A stretch of DNA of 38,072 bases from Candidatus Acidiferrales bacterium (GTDB lineage: Bacteria > Acidobacteriota > Terriglobia > Acidiferrales > UBA7541), in NCBI GenBank assembly GCA_035696585.1, contig DASRQP010000313.1:1-38072 (forward strand), read 5' to 3'. Position 1 is the stretch's first letter, and every line of letters starts with the position of its first letter. The notes under the pieces were generated by a model. That model had not been told where the DNA came from. It did no database searches and worked only from the letters and a program-made list of their open reading frames with translations. Shown here in pieces: positions 9,197-28,533 of this stretch. Made by a program: the position numbers and the translations under genes.

Positions 9197-10276
9197 TCAT
9201 TTGCCTTGTTCCTTTGCCGGGCAGCAAGGTCCTGGAGGAATGGGGTTGCCATGTGGGCATGTGACAGGATGGCCGAGGAAGCTGCAAATGCGCTCGTCGA
9301 GCTCCGGGCTGATGATGTGCTCGAATTTGCAGGCTTGCGAATCGGCCTCGGCATTGGCAATAGCAAACGTGTCTGTGAAGAGGCGCTCAGCGAGGCGGCG
9401 ACGGCGAACAACATCACGAGCGCGACGCTGGCCGCGGTCAGTCAGTTCAATTTCGGAATCGTGCATGGCGACCAAACCCACGACCGATAGGCGTTGCAGG
9501 GTACGTTCGGGATCGGCATCGAGGGAATGAAAACGCGCAAGTTTGGCGCGCTTGCCAATTTCGGCGCAGAGCCACAATTCTTCAAGCACGTGATCGATGC
9601 GCGCTTCGTCTTCGGAGGAGTAGACGGTGATTTGCGCGAGGCGGCCGTGCGCGAGCTCGATACGGCGATCCGCGAGACTGCCAATGGAGGGATCGTGCGT
9701 GACCATCAAGATTGTATGGCCCTCGTTGTGGAGATCGCGCAGAAGGCGAATCACGGTTTCTTCGTTGGCTTCGTCGAGATTTCCCGTTGGTTCGTCGGCA
9801 AGAATAAGCTTGGGATGATTGATGAGCGCGCGGGCGACGGCGACGCGCTGCTGTTCGCCGCCGGAAAGTTGCGAAGGAAGATGCAGGAGGCGTTCGCCCA
9901 AGCCGACGCGTCGAAGGGCTTCGGCGGCCTCATGTTCATCCGTGGTGCTGTGAAAATATTGCGCGAGCATGACGTTTTCAACCGCGGTGAGATACGGGAC
10001 GAGGTGAAACTGCTGAAAGACAAAACCGATTTTCTCGGCGCGAAAACGCGTGAGGCCCGTTTCGTCGAGACGGCCCACGTCAACGCCGTCGACGATGGCG
10101 CGGCCGTCCGTGGGCGTGTCGAGTCCGCCGAGAATATTGATGAGCGTAGTCTTACCGGAACCGGAAGGACCCATGATGGCGATCCATTCGCCAGATTCGA
10201 TGCTGAAGGAGACGCCATTCAGCGCGCAGACATCGCCGAAAGCTTTTCTTAGTTCCGTAACTTCGACGAGCGCCAC
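9197..10276 (-). CDS. MacB/LolD-type ABC transporter ATPase fused to a complete DtxR-family metal-dependent regulator module
   Basis: aa 1-215 carry Walker A GPSGSGKT, Q-loop, signature LSGGEQQR, Walker B LILADEPT and H-loop VTHD. aa ~222-348 carry LEELWLCAEIG...LQRLSVVGLVAMHDSEIELTDRGQRRARDVVRRRRLAERLFTD...ACKFEHIISPELDERICSFLGHPVTCPHGNPIP. This is colinear with DtxR winged-HTH plus dimerisation/metal domain (..HRLAERLLTD..ACRWEHVMS..CPFGNPIP). GTG start lies 3 nt after the upstream permease stop. Confidence 0.8.
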   Translation of the reverse strand: MALVEVTELRKAFGDVCALNGVSFSIESGEWIAIMGPSGSGKTTLINILGGLDTPTDGRAIVDGVDVGRLDETGLTRFRAEKIGFVFQQFHLVPYLTAVENVMLAQYFHSTTDEHEAAEALRRVGLGERLLHLPSQLSGGEQQRVAVARALINHPKLILADEPTGNLDEANEETVIRLLRDLHNEGHTILMVTHDPSIGSLADRRIELAHGRLAQITVYSSEDEARIDHVLEELWLCAEIGKRAKLARFHSLDADPERTLQRLSVVGLVAMHDSEIELTDRGQRRARDVVRRRRLAERLFTDTFAIANAEADSQACKFEHIISPELDERICSFLGHPVTCPHGNPIPPGPCCPAKEQGK

Positions 10277-10279
10277 TGA

Positions 10280-11431
10280 TTATTCTCCTCTTAAGATTAC
10301 GGCTGGACGAACATTGCCGAGCAAGCGCAAAGGCAAAGCTCCCGCGAGCGCGACGCAAAGCATTAAGATCACTGTGGCAGGCAGCACTTCCCATCGCGGA
10401 GAAATGCTCGCGCCGAAAACGCGATGGCCCATCCAAACAGAGAGAACCATGCCGAGCGCGTATCCGAGAATTCCGCCCAGGGTTCCGAGGACGCCGACCT
10501 CAGCAAGAAAAAGCCGCACCACTTTTTGAATCGAGCCGCCGAGGGCTTTCATCAGGCCGACGTCCTGGCGGCGCTCCATCGCGAGCGCAGCCATTGTTGC
10601 GAGCACGCACAACGCGGTGAGGACAAGAATCAGCAAACCCATAGAAAGAATCAAAAAGCGTATTCGCTGGAGAAGCTTCCCTTCCGCTTCCGTGATTTGC
10701 GGAATCGGTTTCACTTCAAGAGCCGGAAAGGCGGTCTGGAGCGTGTCCGCAACGGTGCGGATTTGCGCCGCTGAGCCGGGAACGCTCAATTGGATCAGCT
10801 CAATCTTGCCGTCGAGGCCGGCAAGTTTTTGCGCGACGGGCAAGTTGACGAAAATCTGATTGTCTTCCGAGCCGCCCGCATCCGTGACCCCCGCAACCGC
10901 GAGAGTTACGCTGCGGCCTTGATACGACAAGGCGATATTGCCGCCCGCCGAAAGGCCCAGACTGTTGCTCACATTGCGGCCGATGAGACATCGAGAAAGA
11001 TCCGTTCGCGAAACACTTCCGGTTCCGGCAATTTTCCACCATGGTTCCATTTGCGAGACGCGGTCGAGCCAAGTTCCCGTGACGACGACATCCTGTCCAT
11101 TCTTGGAGCCAGTGCGCGCGACGAGATACAAATCCGGAGACGCAACCGCGCCTGAAACCTGGGATTGACGGTCAATGCTTTGCTCAACATCCTGCATGAC
11201 CGATTCATCCATAAGCGGCGGTACGCCGGGTGCTGCGGATGAGGTCTGCGGCGCGGAGATGACAACATTCGCGCCGAGGGAGCGAAATTCCTGCGTGAGC
11301 TTGTGGTTGATATCCAAATCGAGATTCAACAGTGCCGACACAACTGCGCCACCGCTGATGAGCGCGAGCAGTGCCACAACGAGCCGCACGCGGTTTCCAC
11401 GAAGCAAATGGAAGAGCAGGCGCTTGAACAC
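10280..11431 (-). CDS. ABC transporter permease, FtsX/MacB-like
   Basis: 383 aa with an N-terminal TM, a ~230-aa extracytoplasmic domain, then a C-terminal FtsX-type TM bundle (MERRQDVGLMKALGGS motif). Its GTG start overlaps the preceding TAG by 1 nt (TAGTG). Confidence 0.85.
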   Translation of the reverse strand: MFKRLLFHLLRGNRVRLVVALLALISGGAVVSALLNLDLDINHKLTQEFRSLGANVVISAPQTSSAAPGVPPLMDESVMQDVEQSIDRQSQVSGAVASPDLYLVARTGSKNGQDVVVTGTWLDRVSQMEPWWKIAGTGSVSRTDLSRCLIGRNVSNSLGLSAGGNIALSYQGRSVTLAVAGVTDAGGSEDNQIFVNLPVAQKLAGLDGKIELIQLSVPGSAAQIRTVADTLQTAFPALEVKPIPQITEAEGKLLQRIRFLILSMGLLILVLTALCVLATMAALAMERRQDVGLMKALGGSIQKVVRLFLAEVGVLGTLGGILGYALGMVLSVWMGHRVFGASISPRWEVLPATVILMLCVALAGALPLRLLGNVRPAVILRGE

Positions 11432-12723
11432 TACTGCCCCCTCAGAATGGGCGCGGGCGGGACATGGGCGGCGCGATAAAGCGGAATCCAGCTTCCAAGC
11501 AACGCGACGGCAGCAGCCGCCGCGAGAATTATCGGCAGGACGATCAGGCGCGGTAAAGTCGCGATACCAAAGACTGTTTCACCCAACTCGCGCGCGAGGC
11601 CCGCGCCGAGCAGAAAACCCAAGCAGCCTCCGGCGATGGCCAAGAGCAATTGCTCGCAGAGAAACAAACCACCGACCAGAAAATTGGTTGCGCCCAGGGC
11701 TTTCATCAGGCCGACCTCGACGCGACGCTCCATGGCCGTAGTGGCCGAAGTGGCGCCGACAGCAAGAGCGGCGGCAATGAGCGCGGCGATGGTGACAATC
11801 CAGAGAAGAAGACTGACGCGCGAGAGTACGCGGCCTTCGGTCTCTGCAACGCGGCGGATGGCTTCAACGTGAGTGCCGGGGAGAACTTCCTGAATCTGGC
11901 GGCCGATCGAAGTGATGTACGGCGAACAATACCAGCGGTCGAATTCGGTGGACGTCATCTTGTTGGGATCTTGTTGCGAGAAGGCATCGGCCGGCTTGGT
12001 GAGAGCGCTGACAAAGAGCTGGCGAAATTCGCCGGGCTTGCCGCCGAGATCCTGGGCCAAGGAAAGCGGGCAGAGCACGGCGTCGTCCTGCGAATCGCCG
12101 GTTGTGACGATGCCAGTCACGGTCGCGAGAGATTCGCGGGAATCCACGCTGAGATTTAAGTCGTCACCGATGGCGATTCCATATTTTTGTGCTACGGACG
12201 CGCCGGCCACGCAATCCTTCGAATCGTCGGCGAACCATTGGCCGCGAATCTTCCACCATGGATGAGTGAAACTGGCGCCGGTCGCAAAAGTGGTGCCGTC
12301 TTCAATCGGCACGGAGTGCCTGTACCAAGTGCCGATGAGTGTAGTCTGGAATTGGGTGGTGTTGGCACCAGCCCGTTCGATGCCGGCCCGGACGGGAATA
12401 TCGAGAAAGGGAGTAAAGCCGAGAATATTGTGGCGCCAGAAAATGGTCTTGAGCTTGGGCAGAGCCGAAGTGGAAAGATAGGCGCCCTGATCGACTGGAC
12501 GGTAGTCAACGCCGCCAATCTCGACGGGCAGAGTGTCCGCTTGCGGCGTGACCAGCAAGTTTGCGCCGAGGCTGCGGAACTCGCGCGCGAGTTGATCTCC
12601 AACATCGACTGCGACGGTGAATGTGGCCGTGGCAACGGCCATGCCGAGAACCAACGCAATTCCGGTGAGCACTTTCCGGCGCGGGTTGCGTGTGAACGAT
12701 TCTCTTAGGAGGCGGATGAACAT
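11431..12723 (-). CDS. ABC transporter permease, FtsX/MacB-like
   Basis: 430 aa with the same architecture (MERRVEVGLMKALGATN motif). It starts 15 nt downstream of the FTR1-DUF2318 gene. Confidence 0.85.
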   Translation of the reverse strand: MFIRLLRESFTRNPRRKVLTGIALVLGMAVATATFTVAVDVGDQLAREFRSLGANLLVTPQADTLPVEIGGVDYRPVDQGAYLSTSALPKLKTIFWRHNILGFTPFLDIPVRAGIERAGANTTQFQTTLIGTWYRHSVPIEDGTTFATGASFTHPWWKIRGQWFADDSKDCVAGASVAQKYGIAIGDDLNLSVDSRESLATVTGIVTTGDSQDDAVLCPLSLAQDLGGKPGEFRQLFVSALTKPADAFSQQDPNKMTSTEFDRWYCSPYITSIGRQIQEVLPGTHVEAIRRVAETEGRVLSRVSLLLWIVTIAALIAAALAVGATSATTAMERRVEVGLMKALGATNFLVGGLFLCEQLLLAIAGGCLGFLLGAGLARELGETVFGIATLPRLIVLPIILAAAAAVALLGSWIPLYRAAHVPPAPILRGQ

Positions 12724-12738
12724 GTGCGTTTGATGCGT

Positions 12739-14037
12739 CTATTTCTGAATCCGCGAGGCCGCGTCGACGATGGCCGAAAGATCGAGGACTATATTCGTTC
12801 CTTCGACACGCGACTTGAAGGCAATGGGATTGCAGCCTCCGGGCATGCCAATTTCGGCGGCGTTCACGGGGGCGCCACAGTTGCGGCAAATCAAGACCGA
12901 ACCTTCCTGGCGATAACCTATCAGACCGCAGATTTCGCAGGCATCAAGCGCGCTGACGAAGTCGCCATTGGGCTTGCGCATCACAAAAAAGCGAAATGCG
13001 GTCCCCTGCACGTCCACCGTGTAGAAATGGACGGAGACTCCGCTCATTTCCGCCAGCGGGAGCCGAACAAGGTTTCCAACTGCTGCGACATGCTCTGCTT
13101 CAGGAGGAGCAGCGGACGCGCGTGTATAAACAAACTCAGCCGTGAGGGAGAGTATGACCGCAAGGCACAGAAAGGCCGCCGCGAAACTCCATCCCCGACG
13201 ACGGCGATACTCGTGCTCTCGGAGGCGCTTTTCAGCGGGATTCGCGGGCGCATCAAGCGCGGCGCCGCCAGTGCCGCCACTTTTTCCGCCAGCCTCACCT
13301 CCGTGGAGCGCGAACCATTCGCGCAATACCACAATTGCAGCGACGCCGAGAATAACAACGAAGAAGAAGTATTCGTTGCGGACGATGGGACCGATCGTCG
13401 CCATTTCCTGCTTGCTCGATGGAAGCCATGTGGCCTCGCTCAATTCATGCAAGCCTGTCAGGGCAAGTTGAAATGCGACGACCATCAAGATCGTGCTGGT
13501 GGCGGCGAAAAAGCGGCCAAGAGGAATCTTAAGCGTCCCTTGGAAGAAAAACAGGCCCACGGCGACGGCCATGGCGATTCCGATTCCAGTGCCAATCCAC
13601 ACTTGAAGGCCTGCAATGGAGAGCTCCACGGCGCGAAGAATCAGGATCAGTTCGGCGCCCTCGCGCAAAACCATCAGGAAAACAAAAAAACCGATTCCCC
13701 ACCCCGCTGCACGCTCGCTCTTCTGTGCGTAGGTCTCGACGCGCTGTTCGATTTCTTTGCGCAGGCGACGCGCGACGCGGTTCATCCAAATAATCATGGA
13801 GACAACGAGAGCGGCAGCGGCCAGCATAAGCACGCCCTCGAATCCGTCTTCGCTGACCTGCCAGCGCTGCAGCAGAACAGCGGCCGCGAAACTGCACGCG
13901 ATAGCAACTGCAACGCCAGCCCACACGTAACGCGCCAATTGGCGGCGGCCCGTGCGATTGAGATAGACTAAGACAATGCCGACCACAAGGGCGGCTTCAA
14001 CGCCTTCGCGGAGAGCGAGTAGGAGTGCGGAAAGCAT
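12739..14037 (-). CDS. FTR1-family high-affinity iron permease fused to a C-terminal DUF2318 Cys-rich domain
   Basis: 432 aa. Two REGxE motifs sit in TM segments (REGVE aa 10-14, REGAE aa 125-129), diagnostic of FTR1/EfeU. After a Gly-rich linker and an extra TM comes FYTVDVQGTAFRFFVMRKPNGDFVSALDACEICGLIGYRQEGSVLICRNCGAPV...IGMPGGCNPIAF, the DUF2318 signature (DACxxCG..GY...CxNCG...GGCNP). Confidence 0.85.
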   Translation of the reverse strand: MLSALLLALREGVEAALVVGIVLVYLNRTGRRQLARYVWAGVAVAIACSFAAAVLLQRWQVSEDGFEGVLMLAAAALVVSMIIWMNRVARRLRKEIEQRVETYAQKSERAAGWGIGFFVFLMVLREGAELILILRAVELSIAGLQVWIGTGIGIAMAVAVGLFFFQGTLKIPLGRFFAATSTILMVVAFQLALTGLHELSEATWLPSSKQEMATIGPIVRNEYFFFVVILGVAAIVVLREWFALHGGEAGGKSGGTGGAALDAPANPAEKRLREHEYRRRRGWSFAAAFLCLAVILSLTAEFVYTRASAAPPEAEHVAAVGNLVRLPLAEMSGVSVHFYTVDVQGTAFRFFVMRKPNGDFVSALDACEICGLIGYRQEGSVLICRNCGAPVNAAEIGMPGGCNPIAFKSRVEGTNIVLDLSAIVDAASRIQK

Positions 14038-14069
14038 TTAGGAGTCGAGCCCAGTTGTAACTCAGTATC

Positions 14070-14085
14070 AACTAGGAATTCCGAG
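14070..14085. promoter_or_regulatory. imperfect 16-bp palindrome in the divergent FTR1/secretin control region (candidate operator)
   Basis: ACTAGGAATTCCGAGT has 12 of 16 positions symmetric around GGAATTCC. It lies 33-48 nt upstream of the FTR1 ATG and overlaps the spacer of a weak GATACT -10 candidate on the minus strand. Confidence 0.2.
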
Positions 14086-14198: not shown

Positions 14199-17100
14199 TT
14201 GGAGGCACGCCTTGGCTTTCGCGGCACAGACGCGGGCAACTGCACGAGCTTCAAGCCAATCTCTGTAAGAATAGCGAACAGGTATATTCATTTGCGTCTA
14301 CTTCTAACGATCGCGTTTGGTCTGTGCGCCGCGCTTGGCACATTCGGCGGACAGGTGCAGACGCCAGCCAAGTCTCCCTCTGGGGCCGTTCAAAAAAGAA
14401 ACTACGATTCCAAGCGCTCGAAAGAGGCGTACGAGCGCGGGATGAAAGCGGAGAAGCAGAAGAATTGGCCGATGGCATTTGCCGCCTACACGGAAGCCGC
14501 GCAACAAGATGCAACAAAGCCGGAATATTTATTGCGTAGAGAGTTCGCCCGAAGCGAGTTGGTGAGCGCATCCGTGGACCGCGCGGAGCGGGACGCGTTG
14601 ACAGGCCACCTGGCCGAGGCACGCGAGGAATTGGACGCAGCGCTGGTGCTTGACCCGAGCGATGAGATGGTGCGCGAGAGGCTGGCGCAACTGGCGCCGT
14701 CCTCTGCCGCCGCTCTGCGGCAACTGATGACCAAGCCCGCAGGCGTGGTGCGACTGGAGCCGCTGACGGCTACGCACAGCTTCGATTATCGGGGCGATAC
14801 GATAAGCGCATACGAAGCAGTGGCGCGCGACTTTGGCGTGGACGCCTCGTTTGATGTAGAGCTGCAATCGAAGCCCGTTCACTTGCAAGTCACTAATGTT
14901 GATTTTACAACCGCCATGCGCGTGCTCGGCGATATGACCGGAACGTTCTGGCGGCCACTGACGGGCAGGCTTTTCTTTGTAGCCGCCGACACGCCAGAAA
15001 AACGCCGCGCGTACGATCTGTCGGTGGTAAGCACCGTGGAACTGCCTGCCTCCGAAACGCCAAACGACATGACCGAGGTGCTGCGCATCGTCCGCGATAT
15101 CGCAGGAATCACGCGTGCGCAACTGAATTCATCGGCGCGAACCATTACGATGCGGGCATCGCCGCAGGCAATTTCGGTGGCGACGAAATTGCTCGCCCAA
15201 CTTGAGGAGCCGCGCGGAGAAATGGTGTTGGAAGTGGAAATTCTCGAAGTGGACCGCAACGCCGCCAGCCAAATCGGAATTACGCCGCCTACATCGGTGT
15301 CAGCGTTCTCTCTGACGCCGCAACAGATTCAAACTGCACAATCCGGCATAGCGGGACTCATAGGAGTGATTGAACAACTTTTCGGACCGACAAGCGCACT
15401 GTCGGGATTGGGCGCGAACCAAATTGCCTCGTTGGTGGGATCAGGGCAAGTGGGCGTAGGCTCGCTGATTCCGCCGCTGATTGCGTTTGGTGGGGGAAAG
15501 ACGACATTTCTGTCGACCCTGCCCGGAGCGGCAGCGGCGTTCTCAGATACGCTGAATGTCGTAAAAAGCGGCAAGCGCGTCCTGCTGAGAGCGGAGGACG
15601 ACAAGCCCGTTACGTTCTTCGTCGGGGACCGCGTGCCGATTGCGCTGGCGCAATTCTCTTCGGGCCTGACGTCGTCGAGTTTCATCCCCAATGTGTCGTC
15701 CAGCCTCTTTCCGCGAACGGATTTTGCCACAGGGAAGAATCCCGTTGCGATTGTCGCGGCGGACTTCAATGCTGATGGCAACGTGGACCTGGCAAACGCC
15801 AATCACGATGACAACACCGTGTCCATTTTCCTTGGAAACGGCGATGGAACATTCACGAGTAAAGGAACCCTGGCGACCGGGCTGGGCCCTGTTGCGCTGG
15901 TTACCGCGGACTTTAATAACGACAGCGTTCCCGACCTGGCTGTGGTGAACCAGACAGACGATACGGTTTCTATTTTCCTCGGCAACGGCGACGGCACATT
16001 TACGCTCAAGGGGACTTTCGCTACAGGAAAGAATCCGGTCGCGGCCGTGACGGCGGATTTCAATGGAGACGGCCATACGGATCTCGCGGTAGTCAATCAA
16101 AGCGATAACACCGTCTCAGTCCTGCTCGGGAATGGCGATGGAACGTTTCAACCGCAAACTGTGATCTCAACAGGGCAAGGTCCATCAGCAATCGCCACCG
16201 CGGACTTCAATAACGATGGCAAGGCAGATCTCGCGATTACAAACCAGTCGGCGAATACCGTCTCGATTTTTCTGGGGAACGGAGACGGAACTTTTGCCGG
16301 CAGTGGAACGCTTCCTACAGGGACTTTGCCGGTCGCGATTGCCGCGGGACAGTTCAACGTCAACACCAGCACGAATGTTGGATTAGTCGTTGTCAATCAG
16401 ACGGATAACACCATCTCGAATTTCCTGGGCAATGGCGACGGAACGTTCACGTCGAATGGCACTTCGGCGTTAAGCGTCAGCGCGACTACCGGTAATAAGC
16501 CAGTGGCGATTGCTGCCGGGGATTTCAACGTAGACGGGCGAACAGATTTGGCGATATCAGATGAGAACGCAGACCTGGTAGACATCTTGATCGGCAATGG
16601 CGACGGCACGTTTGCTTCGCTGCTACAGCTTCCGACCGGAACGGGGCCCATCGGCCTGGTCACTGGAGAGTTTCTGGGCGCGGCCCATCCACCGGATCTG
16701 GCCGTGACGGATTCGACGGCCAACACGATTTCCGTGATATTGGACAACGCCACTTTTAGTTCGACGAATAGTGCTGCAGCGCCGATTCCGTTCCCCAGTT
16801 CCCAGTATGAGGACATCGGGCTAAAGATGAAGGCAACTCCTCACATGCACGCGGACGGTGACGTAACGCTCGAGTTGCACTTCGAACTGCGCAGTCTGAC
16901 GGGAGATTCCGTAAACAGCATACCCGTGATCAGCAATCAGACAATCGATCAGACGGTCCGCGTGAAGGATGAGGAAACAACTGCGCTGGCAGGGATCATC
17001 GAATCACAAGAAATGCGTGCTATCAATGGCACTCCTGGAGTGGCGGATCTGGGGCCGTTTGGGTTGCTGGGAAGCAAACGCAGCACACAAAATGACAAAA

Positions 17101-17231
17101 CGGAATTGTTGGTACTGGTAACTCCGAGAGTGGTGAGTTGGAACCCTAAGACCGCTAAACCAATCTACGCAGGACGCGCGCCGGTCGACGTCGGTGGATT
17201 TGTTTCTTTGCCAGGTCGACCGGTGCCGTAG
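14199..17231 (+). CDS. secretin-family outer-membrane protein with a seven-blade FG-GAP beta-propeller inserted in the secretin domain
   Basis: 1010-aa ORF. The likely true start is TTG 14292 (MRLLLTIAFGLCAALGTFGGQ signal peptide). The N-terminal ~100 aa are helical and TPR-like. Secretin N-domains follow (VHLQVTNVDFTTAMRVLGDMTG...; ITMRASPQAISVATKLLAQLEEP). The secretin core starts at VLEVEILEVD...FFVGDRVPIA, then 7 FG-GAP repeats, and resumes at YEDIGLKMKATPHMHADGDVTLELHFELRSL...IPVISNQTIDQTVRVKDEETTALAGII...GTPGVADLGPFGLLG...ELLVLVTPRVV. Confidence 0.8.
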   Translation: MEARLGFRGTDAGNCTSFKPISVRIANRYIHLRLLLTIAFGLCAALGTFGGQVQTPAKSPSGAVQKRNYDSKRSKEAYERGMKAEKQKNWPMAFAAYTEAAQQDATKPEYLLRREFARSELVSASVDRAERDALTGHLAEAREELDAALVLDPSDEMVRERLAQLAPSSAAALRQLMTKPAGVVRLEPLTATHSFDYRGDTISAYEAVARDFGVDASFDVELQSKPVHLQVTNVDFTTAMRVLGDMTGTFWRPLTGRLFFVAADTPEKRRAYDLSVVSTVELPASETPNDMTEVLRIVRDIAGITRAQLNSSARTITMRASPQAISVATKLLAQLEEPRGEMVLEVEILEVDRNAASQIGITPPTSVSAFSLTPQQIQTAQSGIAGLIGVIEQLFGPTSALSGLGANQIASLVGSGQVGVGSLIPPLIAFGGGKTTFLSTLPGAAAAFSDTLNVVKSGKRVLLRAEDDKPVTFFVGDRVPIALAQFSSGLTSSSFIPNVSSSLFPRTDFATGKNPVAIVAADFNADGNVDLANANHDDNTVSIFLGNGDGTFTSKGTLATGLGPVALVTADFNNDSVPDLAVVNQTDDTVSIFLGNGDGTFTLKGTFATGKNPVAAVTADFNGDGHTDLAVVNQSDNTVSVLLGNGDGTFQPQTVISTGQGPSAIATADFNNDGKADLAITNQSANTVSIFLGNGDGTFAGSGTLPTGTLPVAIAAGQFNVNTSTNVGLVVVNQTDNTISNFLGNGDGTFTSNGTSALSVSATTGNKPVAIAAGDFNVDGRTDLAISDENADLVDILIGNGDGTFASLLQLPTGTGPIGLVTGEFLGAAHPPDLAVTDSTANTISVILDNATFSSTNSAAAPIPFPSSQYEDIGLKMKATPHMHADGDVTLELHFELRSLTGDSVNSIPVISNQTIDQTVRVKDEETTALAGIIESQEMRAINGTPGVADLGPFGLLGSKRSTQNDKTELLVLVTPRVVSWNPKTAKPIYAGRAPVDVGGFVSLPGRPVP
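15708..16748 (+). repeat. seven tandem coding FG-GAP/VCBS-like repeats (~50 aa each)
   Basis: Repeat consensus P-V-A-x-x-x-ADFNxDGxxDLAVxNxxxNTVSIFLGNGDGTF. The Ca-binding-like DxNxDGxxD is intact in blades 1-4 and 6 and degenerate in blades 5 (GQFNVNTSTNVGL) and 7 (GEFLGAAHPPDL). Confidence 0.85.
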
Positions 17232-24978: not shown

Positions 24979-27900
24979 TCAGCGAGGCAACGGAACCAGC
25001 AACAATCGGCCATTCGCCTGGTCGACGACTGCGGCAACATTCGTCAAAGGGTCGATGGCGACGGAAAACTCAGCCGAGCCGCCCATGGGCAGCACGAACT
25101 CGACCTTACCAGCTTGGATCGACAACACCGAATTGGGGTTCGTGGCCAGAAAATTGAAGACCGACAGGGTGTTGGTGGCGTTATTTACGGTCACGCCGGT
25201 GCCGCTCTGGAAATTGTAGGCGATCGCGGTTGGATTGATACCCATGCGGATGGGCGTAGCCGTAAATGCTTTCGGATCGACCACCCCCAAATCGTTTTGA
25301 AGACTGTTGGCAACCAGGAACGTATCCGTTATGGGGTCAAACGCCGCGTCAGTCGGCACTTCAAAATTATTGAGGCGGCCCACGATGAAATGGCTTCCGA
25401 GATCCACGATATCAACCGTGTTCTGCGTGGTGGCGGTGACTGCCAAGAGATTATCGATGGGGTCGATGCTCACGCCGAATGGGCGCTGATCCACCGGAAT
25501 GCTAGCAGGCGCTGAGGAAATAGCACCGCTGCCGATCGTAAACTCCGAAACCGTATTCGAGTCACTGTTGGCCACAGCAACCGTGCCGGTGTCAGGCTGG
25601 ATAGCCACGCCCGCTGGAGATGTGCCGACTGTTACGGTTGCGGTCACGGCGTTGTTGACATAGTCAACGACCGTGGCGTCGCCACTGCCATTGTTTGCCA
25701 CCACGCCGAGGCCTAGTCGCGGAAGCACGGCGACGCCTTCCGGGCATGTACCCACCGAAAACGTGTTCGTCACAGATATCGAAGAAAGATTCACAACCGA
25801 AACAGTTCCAGTTCCCGTACAGGTTCCGGCCGAATTGAGCGCGCCCTGGCTGGTGACAAGCGCCTCGCCAAGATCGGGGTCGATCGCCACAGCAATTGGA
25901 TTCAGTCCAATCGGAATGGCGCCGATTACTGCGAAACTCTTCTCGTTCGAGGCCGAACCGCCGGGAGTCATTACATCCAAGGAAAAACGCCGCGGCGCCG
26001 CCAGCAGGTTTCCGGGAATTGTGGCCGTAGCTTGCCGGCCATTCGAACTGACCACTGTGGGGACGATTGTCCCATCCAGCCGCAGCTGCGAACCGGACAC
26101 AAATCCAAATCCGTTCACGGTGACGGCGAGCGAACCCGAACCTGGCGCCGTAAACGTGGTTCCCGGGCTGAGTTCCGTAATTTGCGGCGAGCGAATTGGG
26201 CCAAGAGGCAGAATGGAGATGTTGTTGCTACCAGAGTTCGCAATCACCGCAACGTTTTTCCCTGCGTCAATTGCCACCGCCTGGGGCAGCGTGCCAACAG
26301 CGATACTATTTCCAATCGGCTTCAGAGTTCGCAAATCGAGTACGGTGGCCGTTCCACCTATGCTGTTCAATACAACGCCAACGTCAGTGAGGGGATTAAC
26401 GGCGTCAGCGACTTCTCCTTGGGTCAATGAAACCGTATTTACGGTTTGATCGAGCACACTGAATAGAGTCAAGGTTGTTTGATTCGGATCGGTGAGGAGA
26501 GCCTCTTCGGTCTCCGTGTTGATCGCGACACCCTGAACGCTGGTTGACAATGTGGCGGAAGCGATCACGTTGGGTACACGCGCGACTTGGGTCGCCGTCG
26601 CCGCACTTCCCAGGTCCACAATGGTGACCGAACCAGAACCGCCGGGAGTCACGACAGCCCAGTTCAATTGCGGCTCGACGGCAATCGTGGGAGTGGGGCC
26701 AGTGCTGACGGGGCGCGTGTTGGTGTTCGGCGTAGTGGCACAATTATTGGCCATGCTCGCGTCGGAGCCGCCGAGCACGCACACCAGATTCGGGGGATTC
26801 GTTGACAGATCGACTACGGCAGCGACGTTCGTATTTGAGTATGCAACCAGCGCGCGGTGCGTCAGTGGATTTACCCCTACGGAATAAGGCGAAGGTGCCG
26901 GCGTGGTACCGGTAGGATTACTCGGGAGAGAAAACGCCGTCACGGCTTGGGTCTGAAGGTTCACGATGGAGAGCGTGTTGTCCGAGCTATTGACGACCGC
27001 AGCCAGATGCAAGATGTCGTCCACGCCAACGCCCGTGGGCGCATTTCCCACCGTGAGCGTGGCGCCCGCGGAGTTAGTGTCGAGATTTATGAGAGTTACG
27101 GCACCCGCGCTTCCGCTGGCTCCATGATCCACAACCACCGCAGTACCGAGCGCCGAATCGATCGCGACGGCGGTTGGCTGGGTGCCGACCGCGATAGGCG
27201 CAAGCGGCGCGGGAGGAATGTCCGTCGCCGACGGAGAGACGGCAACATTAACCGAAGCAACAGCCGGCAGCCCGCTTGGCACGTCGCTATTTTGCACAAG
27301 TATGGGAAACAACCCCGGCGTGGAAAAAGAAAAACCAGGCGCCGACAGCGTGGCTTGCAATTGGCGGCTGTTCACCAGAGTGGCGGGAAGAGTTTGATTC
27401 CCGGATGTGACTCGCGTTGACGATGAGAAATATCCGCCGTTCAAACTGAGAGTACCCGAAATTGTCGACGGGGGAAAACTGTCCGGGGTGGAAGCGACAA
27501 CCGCCGGCCGCGTGGGCTGTACAGTCAAAGGGGCTGGCTGGCTGGTGTCGCCATTTTGGCGCTCGACTGTGATCGCCAACGAACTGGGGGCCGGGCCAGC
27601 AAAGAAAGTAGAAGGGATGGTCGCACGGAGAGTATTTGCGCCGAGGAATGTGGTCGCCACAGGCGCGCCATTGACCAGAATCTGGCTGGTGGAAAAGAAA
27701 TTGCTGCCGAACAAATAGACGTCCTGTTGGAACAACCCTTCAACAGCGCTGCTCGGCTCCAACGGAATCGCGCTGAAGCTGGGATCAGAGCCGGCAATAG
27801 CGCTGACTGAGGCGGAAGCGGACTGCCGGGAATCCGCAGCGGAAGTAGCGGTAATGGTGACGCTGGCTTGCGCCGCTGGGGGAGCGGTGTAGCAAGCAAC

Positions 27901-28533
27901 GCTCATGCCTGGCGTGGCGGGGTTCGGCGGAATAGGAGTGATGGGCATGCTCACGCTGCAAGCGGTAGGAACAATGGTGCCCACAGTTGAATTTCCGTTC
28001 GCAATTTGATTTACGGACCAATTGACGGCCGTATTCGAATTTCCGGACACGGTTGCGGTAAATTGGAACTGCTCCGTGGTGCCGATCGCGGCGCTTGAAG
28101 GAGTAACCGAAACGCGTATGCCGGTGTCGAGGCTGACATTGGTGATGGCAAAGACCGCCGTATCCGCTTGGCTGATCGCAACGATGCTAACCACCGGAGG
28201 GCTCGGCAGATTTGCGGGAGCGGTATAAAGACCGGTAGTGCTTATGGTTCCAAGGGTGGCGTTTCCGCCTGTAACGCAGCCGGTCGGCATGGTGATGTTG
28301 GTTACTGTAGAACTACCCGTGGCATTGCTTGCAGGCGCTTGATTGCAGACGTCCCAGGTAACCGTGGTGTTCGCTTCGCCGACTACAGAGGCACCATACT
28401 GCTGCGTGCCCGCGAGGACCACCGTCTGATTGACCGGCGACACCGTGACGGTCACAGGCGTGGAAGCGCCTCCGCCACAGCCTGCTATGAGTGCAGCCAA
28501 AGCTACAGTGATTCCCCACTTACCCGATCTCAT
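24979..28533 (-). CDS. 1184-aa surface/periplasmic lipoprotein: 2 Big_2-like Ig domains, 3 IPT/TIG-like domains and two seven-blade YVTN beta-propellers
   Basis: Lipobox LIAG-C19, with GGAGGA SD. Ig-like domains: VTVSPVNQTVVLAGTQQYGASV...VTWDV and VSVTPSSAAIGTTEQFQFTATV...VNWSV. IPT-like domains: LFGSNF...ILVNGAPV...LRATIP; LSLNGGYF...LQATLS; VTVNGFGF...LRLDGTIV...ATATIP. There are 7 + 7 repeats of the VGxxPxGVAIDxxxxxAxVANxxxNTVSVIDL type (aa ~445-778 and ~870-1184). Confidence 0.8.
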   Translation of the reverse strand: MRSGKWGITVALAALIAGCGGGASTPVTVTVSPVNQTVVLAGTQQYGASVVGEANTTVTWDVCNQAPASNATGSSTVTNITMPTGCVTGGNATLGTISTTGLYTAPANLPSPPVVSIVAISQADTAVFAITNVSLDTGIRVSVTPSSAAIGTTEQFQFTATVSGNSNTAVNWSVNQIANGNSTVGTIVPTACSVSMPITPIPPNPATPGMSVACYTAPPAAQASVTITATSAADSRQSASASVSAIAGSDPSFSAIPLEPSSAVEGLFQQDVYLFGSNFFSTSQILVNGAPVATTFLGANTLRATIPSTFFAGPAPSSLAITVERQNGDTSQPAPLTVQPTRPAVVASTPDSFPPSTISGTLSLNGGYFSSSTRVTSGNQTLPATLVNSRQLQATLSAPGFSFSTPGLFPILVQNSDVPSGLPAVASVNVAVSPSATDIPPAPLAPIAVGTQPTAVAIDSALGTAVVVDHGASGSAGAVTLINLDTNSAGATLTVGNAPTGVGVDDILHLAAVVNSSDNTLSIVNLQTQAVTAFSLPSNPTGTTPAPSPYSVGVNPLTHRALVAYSNTNVAAVVDLSTNPPNLVCVLGGSDASMANNCATTPNTNTRPVSTGPTPTIAVEPQLNWAVVTPGGSGSVTIVDLGSAATATQVARVPNVIASATLSTSVQGVAINTETEEALLTDPNQTTLTLFSVLDQTVNTVSLTQGEVADAVNPLTDVGVVLNSIGGTATVLDLRTLKPIGNSIAVGTLPQAVAIDAGKNVAVIANSGSNNISILPLGPIRSPQITELSPGTTFTAPGSGSLAVTVNGFGFVSGSQLRLDGTIVPTVVSSNGRQATATIPGNLLAAPRRFSLDVMTPGGSASNEKSFAVIGAIPIGLNPIAVAIDPDLGEALVTSQGALNSAGTCTGTGTVSVVNLSSISVTNTFSVGTCPEGVAVLPRLGLGVVANNGSGDATVVDYVNNAVTATVTVGTSPAGVAIQPDTGTVAVANSDSNTVSEFTIGSGAISSAPASIPVDQRPFGVSIDPIDNLLAVTATTQNTVDIVDLGSHFIVGRLNNFEVPTDAAFDPITDTFLVANSLQNDLGVVDPKAFTATPIRMGINPTAIAYNFQSGTGVTVNNATNTLSVFNFLATNPNSVLSIQAGKVEFVLPMGGSAEFSVAIDPLTNVAAVVDQANGRLLLVPLPR

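Follow-up and report, generated by a model that had tools for sequence, protein, structure and literature searches.

Results

A secretin with a beta-propeller in its gate

The DNA analysed here is contig DASRQP010000313.1 of a Candidatus Acidiferrales bacterium (assembly GCA_035696585.1), a stretch of 38,072 nucleotides that we call the window. Its plus strand carries an open reading frame (ORF) of 1010 codons and a stop (14199..17231), which encodes a secretin with a propeller in its gate. Secretins are the outer-membrane gate common to type II and type III secretion, type IV and Tad pili, competence and filamentous-phage export. A sequence-only reading of the window had described the ORF as an orphan secretin with a TPR-like N-terminus, interrupted by a complete seven-blade FG-GAP propeller. 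The description was upheld, and the coordinates given with it proved accurate to within a few residues.

All parts of the protein are encoded on the plus strand. Downstream of a signal peptide lies an N-terminal TPR-like helical domain (aa 67-166; 14397..14696), which matches the Pfam families TPR_2 and TPR_14 (TPR match at aa 127-165) and resembles the TPRs of Amuc_1098 and TraC. AlphaFold2 (AF2; run with an alignment of 79 sequences) modelled it as helices with a predicted local distance difference test score (pLDDT) above 90, and the N-terminal 120 residues match the Amuc_1098-family profile (E=3e-11). Two predicted periplasmic N-domains come next (aa 191-265 and 266-340; 14769..15218), which resemble N0 and N1-N3 ring-building motifs. 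AF2 gave them a beta-alpha-beta-beta-alpha secondary structure, Pfam found a weak Secretin_N match at aa 288-339 (13.2 bits; cut-off 28.2), and the model of a relative without the insert (P0270, see below) matched the N0-N1 domains of EscC, MxiD, InvG and GspD.

The first part of the secretin domain (aa 341-480; 15219..15638) comprises the first outer-barrel strand, the lip or helical region, the invariant PPLIAFGGG and the strand KPVTFFVG476DRVP, which ends at the first hinge glycine of the Gate 1 loop. The assignment is based on a deletion test, phmmer and the invariance of G476. A Ser/Thr-rich linker 1 (aa 481-505; 15639..15713; pLDDT <50 for aa 480-495) leads into the seven-bladed FG-GAP (integrin-type) beta-propeller (aa 506-848; 15714..16742), which was identified by Pfam, its repeats, AF2 and Foldseek. 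The initial residues of linker 1 prolong the ascending arm of the ancestral Gate 1, and the remainder is a flexible tether. Linker 2 (aa 849-869; 16743..16805; pLDDT <50 for aa 854-868) returns to the descending arm of Gate 1 (APIPFPSSQ). The second part of the secretin domain (aa 870-980; 16806..17138; PF00263 profile positions 44-168) contains YEDIG874 with the second hinge glycine, inner and outer barrel strands, the Gate 2 sequence NSIPVISN and the terminal strand LLVLVTPRVV, and is followed by a poorly conserved, Pro-rich C-terminal tail (aa 981-1010; 17139..17228). With its order of TPR, N0-like domain, N1/N3-like domain and secretin domain, the protein is a genuine outer-membrane secretin, and it is vertically inherited.

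Pfam detected Secretin (PF00263) in the ORF with E=2e-24 (86.3 bits; cut-off 27.5), only at aa 856-979 and profile positions 44-168 of 169, i.e. as the split match that the sequence-only reading had predicted for a hidden Markov model scan. When aa 487-860 were removed in silico, the match became contiguous (profile positions 18-168; 88.6 bits). In a phmmer search with the insert-deleted protein, DDKPVTFFVGDRVPIA aligned with DNKLASFNVGQDVPV of Escherichia coli GspD and DNGEASFIVGEEVPV of Vibrio cholerae GspD, and the alignment continued unbroken into YEDIGLKMKATPHM. Since the flanks align contiguously without the insert, we conclude that the split secretin domain is real. Orthologues that lack the insert join the same two motifs by a 41-aa loop, which likewise makes the flanks one contiguous domain. 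An alternative phmmer alignment placed the last blade (PDLAVTDSTANTISVILDNATF) on the GspD strand P-x-I-x-T-L-D-N...VGQDVP and was excluded by the deletion test and the insert-less orthologues.

Between the flanks, the Pfam family FG-GAP_3 matched with E=4e-46 (155.8 bits) in seven stretches. Seven repeats of ~49 aa are recognizable at aa 501-552, 553-601, 602-650, 651-699, 700-750, 751-805 and 806-~852. The DxNxDGxxD loop is canonical in five of the seven blades (1-4 and 6) and degenerate in blades 5 and 7; that of blade 6 (D775/N777/D779/D783) is invariant in the 79 homologues. Judged by their motif, these loops appear to be of the Ca2+-binding type. AF2 returned a closed propeller over aa ~500-850 with a pLDDT of 95-98, in a monomer model with a predicted template modelling score of 0.45. 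A Foldseek search with this model found the seven-blade propellers of ITFG2, BBS proteins and integrin alpha (E=1e-9 to 1e-13 for ITFG2, integrin alpha and PVL). Further propeller neighbours were the fungal N-acetylglucosamine lectins PVL and AAL2 and the umbrella-toxin lectin UmbA4, and the remainder of the protein matched PulD. The likeness to the lectins is a fold-level match only (10-22% identity). The insert, whose propeller has a mass of 37 kDa, shows nothing unusual in composition. No DNA tandem repeats were found in 15500-16900, which argues that the blades are ancient and not the product of recent amplification.

The propeller replaces the tip of Gate 1

In f1 pIV, Gate 1 is the loop that extends to the centre of the pore; two highly conserved glycines, G267 and G297, act as its hinges, and variability is greatest at the tip, which is often disordered (PMC8563730). 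The RcpA paper describes Gate 1 of Tad and type II secretion system (T2SS) secretins in the same way (PMC10499894). Counted along the 5WQ8 alignment, the equivalent hinges in V. cholerae GspD are G453, the site of the G453A variant (PDB 5WQ9), and G481. In the query, the hinge glycines are G476 (FFVG476DRVP) and G874 (YEDIG874), both invariant in the 79 homologues. They are 397 residues apart, compared with 25-30 in aligned solved secretins and 41 in insert-less orthologues and the outgroup; the sequence-only reading had estimated ~390 residues between the two motifs. This distance shows that the propeller replaces the Gate 1 tip, the channel-sealing element, and beyond what had been noticed before, it fixes the insertion point: two flexible tethers of ~20-25 residues bearing a seven-bladed propeller stand in place of the tip. 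The Gate 2 residues N906 and P909 are invariant in the 79 homologues as well, and the Gate 2 motif N-x-[IV]-P-V-I-S-N is kept in insert-bearing and insert-less families alike.

All solved secretin structures known to us have a short Gate 1 hairpin (25-45 residues), and it is the tip of this hairpin that closes the pore. Textbook opening and closing is ruled out for the insert-bearing secretin, and a canonical Gate 1 seal cannot form with the insert in place. To our knowledge, no characterised secretin has a folded domain within the secretin core; the variation that we know of is N-terminal (AMIN, N0-N5, TPR) or, within the lip or cap, does not exceed a few tens of residues. We found no published paper on a secretin with an FG-GAP, propeller or Gate 1 insertion, or with the combination of PF00263 and PF13517.

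Spread and conservation of the family

A protein search yielded more than 120 clusters at 90% identity, which are 44-92% identical to the query. Among the best 120 clusters, 118 are full-length and two are fragments, PF13517 and PF00263 occur together in all save one fragment, and the hinge spacing is the same in all 118 full-length homologues. We also scanned one genome per species of the Genome Taxonomy Database (GTDB) and found a relative in at least 508 genomes. The gene is full-length in all of the best 80 loci, some of which lie on contigs of 1-4.5 Mb and one in a record titled 'chromosome'. Nearly all of them (78 of 80) are labelled Acidobacteriota, most as Ca. Acidiferrales (= Acidoferrales, UBA7541); Ca. 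Angelobacter (93% identity) and Ca. Acidoferrum are also represented. Hinge distances are 383-410 aa in nearly all insert-bearing homologues, and in the 79 aligned sequences linker 1 measures 24-26 aa and linker 2 20-27 aa. In distant members, conservation of the propeller (51% identity) is about equal to that of the barrel (54-60%). This recurrence, with its conserved spacing, linkers and identity, argues for a selected architecture and against the chimera or frameshift that the sequence-only reading had named as a possible refutation. The propeller-secretin is under purifying selection in hundreds of Ca. Acidoferrales species. At the same time, the secretin diverges faster (45-50% identity) than its housekeeping neighbours (70-80%).

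In databases, the homologues are labelled 'FG-GAP-like repeat-containing protein', 'VCBS repeat-containing protein' or generic secretin, and some carry the automatic Joint Genome Institute (JGI) label 'CpaC'. The Ca. Acidoferrales lineage has been reported among the most abundant soil genera, with a proposed role in iron cycling (PMC7980381). In the papers on Ca. Angelobacter and Ca. Acidoferrum, we found no mention of pili or secretion systems.

Two loci labelled 'Verrucomicrobiia bacterium' (L039 and L055) contain the same gene in the same synteny, with the FTR1 operon and truB (see below). Because of this shared order and neighbours that are 60-80% identical, they are probably mislabelled or mis-binned Acidoferrales. 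The metagenome-assembled genome SMAG_U6317 contains two differing copies of the propeller-secretin (L018 and L030), 88% and 61% identical to the query, which could reflect paralogy or a mixed bin.

Relatives without the insert and with larger inserts

Using aa 1-486 of the query, we searched 1.8 billion cluster representatives. This revealed a small group of insert-less proteins (P0128, P0268-P0273 and P0275; 610-625 aa) that are 48-55% identical to the N-terminal half of the query and join the same two motifs by a 41-aa hairpin. It also revealed a large family of Terriglobales TPR-secretins (~600-660 aa, e.g. P0190, P0364 and P0470) with 25-33% identity, the same layout of TPR, N-domain and secretin, and mostly a 41-aa Gate 1. 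The Terriglobales proteins, as well as P0128, P0270 and P0275, share with the query the motif PPL(V/I)AFGGG, the Gate 1-arm and Gate 2 motifs and the orphan status. They differ by their simple 41-aa Gate 1 and are uncharacterised themselves.

P0270 and P0275 occupy the genomic slot of the query, between the GBBH-like_N gene and truB-rbfA-infB-nusA-rimP...skp. As positional orthologues that lack the propeller, they add to what had been noticed from the sequence. In a neighbour-joining tree of insert-deleted cores (100 bootstraps), six insert-less proteins were monophyletic in 98 of 100 replicates and nested inside the insert-bearing clade, and monophyly of the insert-bearing proteins was recovered in none of 100. 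The nested position favours secondary loss of the propeller. However, the insert-less gate of 41 aa has the length of the outgroup's gate and resembles it, and the direction of change, gain or loss, is not settled.

Other variants are enlarged, with hinge distances of 603-701 aa. What is added consists of Ig-like domains: P0149 has three Big_2 domains, P0136 a PKD-like and two He_PIG domains, and P0123 three novel Ig-like repeats of ~100 aa. They are nested within the propeller, after roughly blades 1-3, so that the loop holds one domain, which in turn holds others. As Ig-like domains are typical of surface proteins, their presence suggests surface display.

Genomic neighbourhood

The backbone of the window reads lysS, lolCDE-like genes, clpB, bamA, a gene for an 1184-aa protein, skp, rimP-nusA-infB-rbfA-truB and the secretin gene. 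Beyond the latter follow a divergent iron operon, a GBBH-like_N gene and an amino-acid permease gene. The iron operon encodes an FTR1-FtrD permease, two MacB-type FtsX permeases and an ATP-binding cassette (ABC) ATPase fused to a DtxR-type metal-binding domain. The iron operon and truB are thus the neighbours that the sequence-only reading had named, and the orphan status it had proposed was corroborated: no pilus, T2SS or type III secretion system (T3SS) gene was found anywhere in the window. We then considered ten annotated loci, six of insert-bearing orthologues and four of insert-less relatives, and detected no pil, gsp, tad, T3SS or phage-assembly genes within 10 kb in any of them. The orthologues do not show a routinely annotated architecture of T2SS or type IV pili: their labels are automatic, and all six annotated insert-bearing loci lacked such partners nearby.

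Synteny was counted for 60 species loci whose flanks are complete. In 55 of them the iron operon lies upstream of the secretin gene, and in 57 truB lies downstream. The operon is absent beside the insert-bearing genes of L005/L076, L080, L083, L085 and L086 and beside the insert-less positional orthologues of L008 and L009. As both neighbours are equally conserved and the operon is missing at several loci, the arrangement indicates synteny and not a demonstrated partnership. After examination of the 60 loci, we rejected a functional tie between the secretin and the FTR1/MacB-like operon, which is a syntenic neighbour.

The intergenic region between the two contains an operator-like palindrome, AGTTGTAACTCAGTATCAACT (consensus AGTTGnAACTnnGTnnCAACT; 14053-14073), located 16 nt upstream of the FTR1-FtrD start (14037) and just downstream of a promoter-like site on the minus strand (TTGACG-17-TACACT), ~220 nt from the secretin start. 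No chance matches to it are expected in the window, and it occurs exactly in the secretin-upstream intergenic region of 29 of 91 fetched loci. It is probably the binding site of a metal-responsive repressor. In the operon itself, the stretch at 10280-14037 (-) encodes an FTR1 iron permease with a fused FtrD-like membrane Fe-S domain and, after it, the two MacB-type (FtsX + MacB_PCD) permeases. The ABC ATPase (9197-10276, -) carries a C-terminal Fe_dep_repr_C domain (DtxR/IdeR-type, metal-binding and dimerisation), a fusion present in most related loci that suggests direct metal sensing by the transporter ATPase. The operon contains no P19, cupredoxin or EfeO/EfeB genes. It resembles the cFtr1-P19 locus of Campylobacter, where FtsX-type ABC genes lie downstream, except that P19 is absent here.

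Discussion

Relation to characterised secretins

The protein belongs to the secretin superfamily by definition and falls outside every characterised subclass. A Foldseek search with the AF2 model of insert-less P0270 assigned no class: PilQ, GspD and InvG, together with BfpB and pIV, scored about equally. The closest sequence matches are GspD-type secretins (phmmer E about 1e-9), with which the query shares both Gate 1 hinge glycines and Gate 2; its predicted N-domains are a further likeness. The motif order VGxxVP ... F/Y-x-D-x-G-h-x-h-x-h-x-P ... TP+hh is common to the query and GspD/PulD/XcpQ (PDB 5WQ7, 5WQ8, 5WLN, 6HCG). However, the score against TIGR02517 is 84.8 bits with a cut-off of 351.35, gsp genes are missing from the window and the six annotated orthologue loci, the TPR stands in place of a full N0-N3 array, and Gate 1 has 397 aa with a propeller instead of 27-30 aa. 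The PilQ profile TIGR02515 likewise gave 64 bits (cut-off 284.35), and the query differs from PilQ in having no AMIN domains and no pilMNOP genes. Scores were also far under the cut-offs for MshL, SctC and HofQ. The query does not fit the Tad secretins RcpA/CpaC, which are short, with a VirB9-like N-domain and a Tad/Flp locus context: no tad/cpa genes are nearby, and the match to RcpA (8ODN) is weak (phmmer E about 1e-6). The Amuc_1098 family, the outer-membrane protein of Akkermansia type IV pili, also places an N-terminal TPR before the secretin. In contrast to the query, that family has no propeller, and its profile NF042912 reached 42.2 bits (cut-off 750), with a match limited to the TPR part and the extreme C-terminus.

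Vibrio-type GspD carries a cap gate, which is likewise a lineage-specific elaboration and narrows the extracellular opening. It consists of a few tens of residues in the beta-lip, outside Gate 1, and not of a folded 340-aa domain. The propellers of integrin alpha and PVL have the same seven FG-GAP blades and Ca-binding-type DxNxDGxxD hairpins, and the integrin alpha-I domain is nested between blades like the domains in some propeller-secretin relatives. They differ from the present propeller by an identity of only 10-22%, and the host protein here is an outer-membrane channel. For a possible working mode, the closest analogue is PilQ with PilY1. In Pseudomonas aeruginosa, the seven-bladed Ca-binding propeller of PilY1 corks the PilQ outer chamber at the gate, with an adhesive domain exposed outside (PMC11525922). 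PilY1, however, is a separate protein, delivered by the pilus in a single copy per machine, whereas the propeller described here is covalently part of every subunit at Gate 1.

Where the propellers may sit

A ligand-binding or adhesive crown, a plug and a new secretin-based machine had been offered as hypotheses in the sequence-only reading; our evidence leans towards a surface-exposed cap or crown, short of proof. The best-supported model, to which we would give slightly less than an even chance, is an external propeller cap or crown that acts as a seal and a ligand-binding surface, on a channel that serves a machine encoded elsewhere or works alone. In the usual ring of 12-15 subunits, 12-15 propellers would be attached at the pore centre. 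One propeller of 343 aa occupies ~45,000 cubic angstroms and 12-15 copies about 0.55-0.7 million. The inner barrel of pIV is 90 Å wide and the whole particle 96 Å tall (PMC8563730), dimensions that yield a lumen of ~0.6 million cubic angstroms in total. By this comparison, 12-15 propellers cannot sit inside the lumen. Gate loops are reported to swing up and lie against the barrel wall when the channel opens (PMC8563730, PMC10499894). A bulky domain on each tip would force the Gate 1 arms into such a swung-up, open-like position. With the tips near the extracellular rim, tethers of 20-25 aa would allow the propellers a position outside the barrel, for which the rim at the cell surface is the most probable place. 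Here, the cap or crown would take over the sealing role of Gate 1 and offer a multivalent, lectin- or adhesin-like surface for ligands; for the channel to open, the propellers would have to spread as the Gate 1 arms shift. The channel presumably serves a machine of the type-IV-filament class or a polymer-export machine encoded elsewhere, or it may act alone. We favour this crown because of the Ig-like modules, the lectin and integrin fold neighbours, the faster divergence compared with the neighbouring genes and the fit with the PilY1 cork. Furthermore, the conserved hinge glycines, Gate 2 motif and predicted N-domains argue for a conduit that is still gated and not only an anchor.

Several points weigh against an external crown. 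Assembly into a double-walled beta-barrel ring of 12-15 subunits, its stoichiometry and the membrane side of the propellers are putative, the structural model being that of an AF2 monomer. The prepore assembly route is hard to square with 12-15 folded propellers reaching the outer face. Transport is putative, with no partner genes near the secretin in the annotated loci. FG-GAP propellers are generic scaffolds, and the likeness to lectins exists at the level of the fold only. Finally, the insert-less orthologues nested in the insert-bearing clade indicate that the propeller is dispensable in some lineages.

In an alternative arrangement, the propellers would hang down from the Gate 1 tips, within the periplasmic vestibule or beneath it, as a plug or docking ring that blocks the channel from inside or binds a substrate or partner and stands in for missing periplasmic components. 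Secretins generally multimerise in the periplasm before insertion, and no export of folded domains would be needed; the tethers reach either side, and from a closed gate that lies roughly horizontal the tip can point either way. We nevertheless consider a periplasmic position rather unlikely. Displaced gate hairpins go upwards and not downwards, modules like the nested Big_2, He_PIG and PKD-like ones typically occur in surface-exposed proteins, and the secretin evolves faster than its housekeeping neighbours, as surface proteins often do. Moreover, 12-15 propellers would overfill a vestibule ~74 Å wide (PMC8563730) and bar substrate access. In a further alternative, transport itself would have been lost, and the ring would be a stable multimeric anchor in the outer membrane for the display of 12-15 adhesin or lectin propellers, like an oligomeric autotransporter adhesin. 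The orphan gene in all six annotated orthologue loci and in the insert-less relatives, the impossibility of a canonical Gate 1 seal and the Ig-like stalk modules of some variants are in keeping with this idea. Even so, it appears clearly unlikely to us: hinge glycines, Gate 2, N0/N1-like domains and TPR are as strongly conserved as in the insert-less family, which argues for retained periplasmic interactions and gating, and the insert-less orthologues at the same locus presumably are still channels. A bolder reading, which we regard as improbable, is a new class of secretin machine, a self-contained, ligand-gated giant pore, in which an external iris of 12-15 lectin/adhesin-type propellers replaces the Gate 1 seal. 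Binding of a polysaccharide, a mineral surface or another cell at the crown would pull the Gate 1 arms open for uptake or release of large polymers, with neither a pilus or pseudopilus piston nor an inner-membrane platform.

The neighbourhood raises the question whether the secretin is the outer-membrane component of the adjacent iron-uptake system, with the propeller capturing an iron source. The divergent operon lies beside it in 55 of 60 loci, and the lineage is proposed to cycle iron (PMC7980381). This explanation strikes us as very improbable, however. With truB equally conserved (57 of 60), the pattern fits backbone synteny, and the operon is missing beside several insert-bearing genes as well as the insert-less L008 and L009. 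The operator-like palindrome overlaps the promoter on the FTR1 side, ~220 nt from the secretin start. MacB-type pumps do normally use an outer-membrane duct, but iron does not require a pore with a width of tens of angstroms. An artefact, in which a secretin gene and an FG-GAP gene were joined by chimeric assembly, a frameshift or fusion, is practically out of the question and is refuted by recurrence. Its sole hint is the alternative phmmer alignment of the last blade with the VGQDVP strand, whereas the same continuous ORF and spacing recur in the 118 full-length homologues, relatives occur in at least 508 species genomes, the insert composition is ordinary, and the junctions are fixed by the deletion test and by natural insert-less orthologues.

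An external crown, if true, would amount to a built-in PilY1 'cork' and a new coupling of surface recognition to a giant pore; periplasmic propellers, if true, would represent a novel principle of gating or docking. An unusually clean comparative system is provided by the natural pair of forms, one with the insert and one lacking it, at one locus. The family is a natural construct for asking how much cargo Gate 1 tolerates and offers a handle on the envelope biology of uncultured Acidobacteriota.

Gene start and other features of the window

The true start of the secretin is probably the TTG at codon 32, which together with the signal peptide MRLLLTIAFGLCAALGTFGGQ spans 14292..14354 (+). It gives a protein of 979 aa and is followed by the signal-peptide-like sequence MRLLLTIAFGLCAALGTFGG; most close homologues have 978 aa. 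A canonical lipobox was not found in this signal peptide. The first 31 codons of the ORF are then probably a 5' leader. The ~90 nt 5' of the TTG (14199-14291) are conserved at the nucleotide level with L001 (~9900-10000), e.g. GGCTTTCGCGGCACA...GGCAAC...CCAATCT.TGTAAGA, although the proteins are only 67% identical. This conservation suggests a structured or regulatory 5' element; an Rfam scan of the whole window at gathering thresholds gave no match, the leader included.

Between skp (OmpH) and bamA, the gene at 24979-28533 (-) encodes the 1184-aa protein, which has no Pfam domain, only a trace of a Lactonase-type propeller below the threshold. L001, L007 and L008 have a comparably large gene, likewise unannotated, at the same place, and the protein may be an uncharacterised component of outer-membrane biogenesis. 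At the edge of the window, a gene for a 508-aa DUF3300 protein (375-1901, -) adjoins a thioredoxin/AhpC-like gene.

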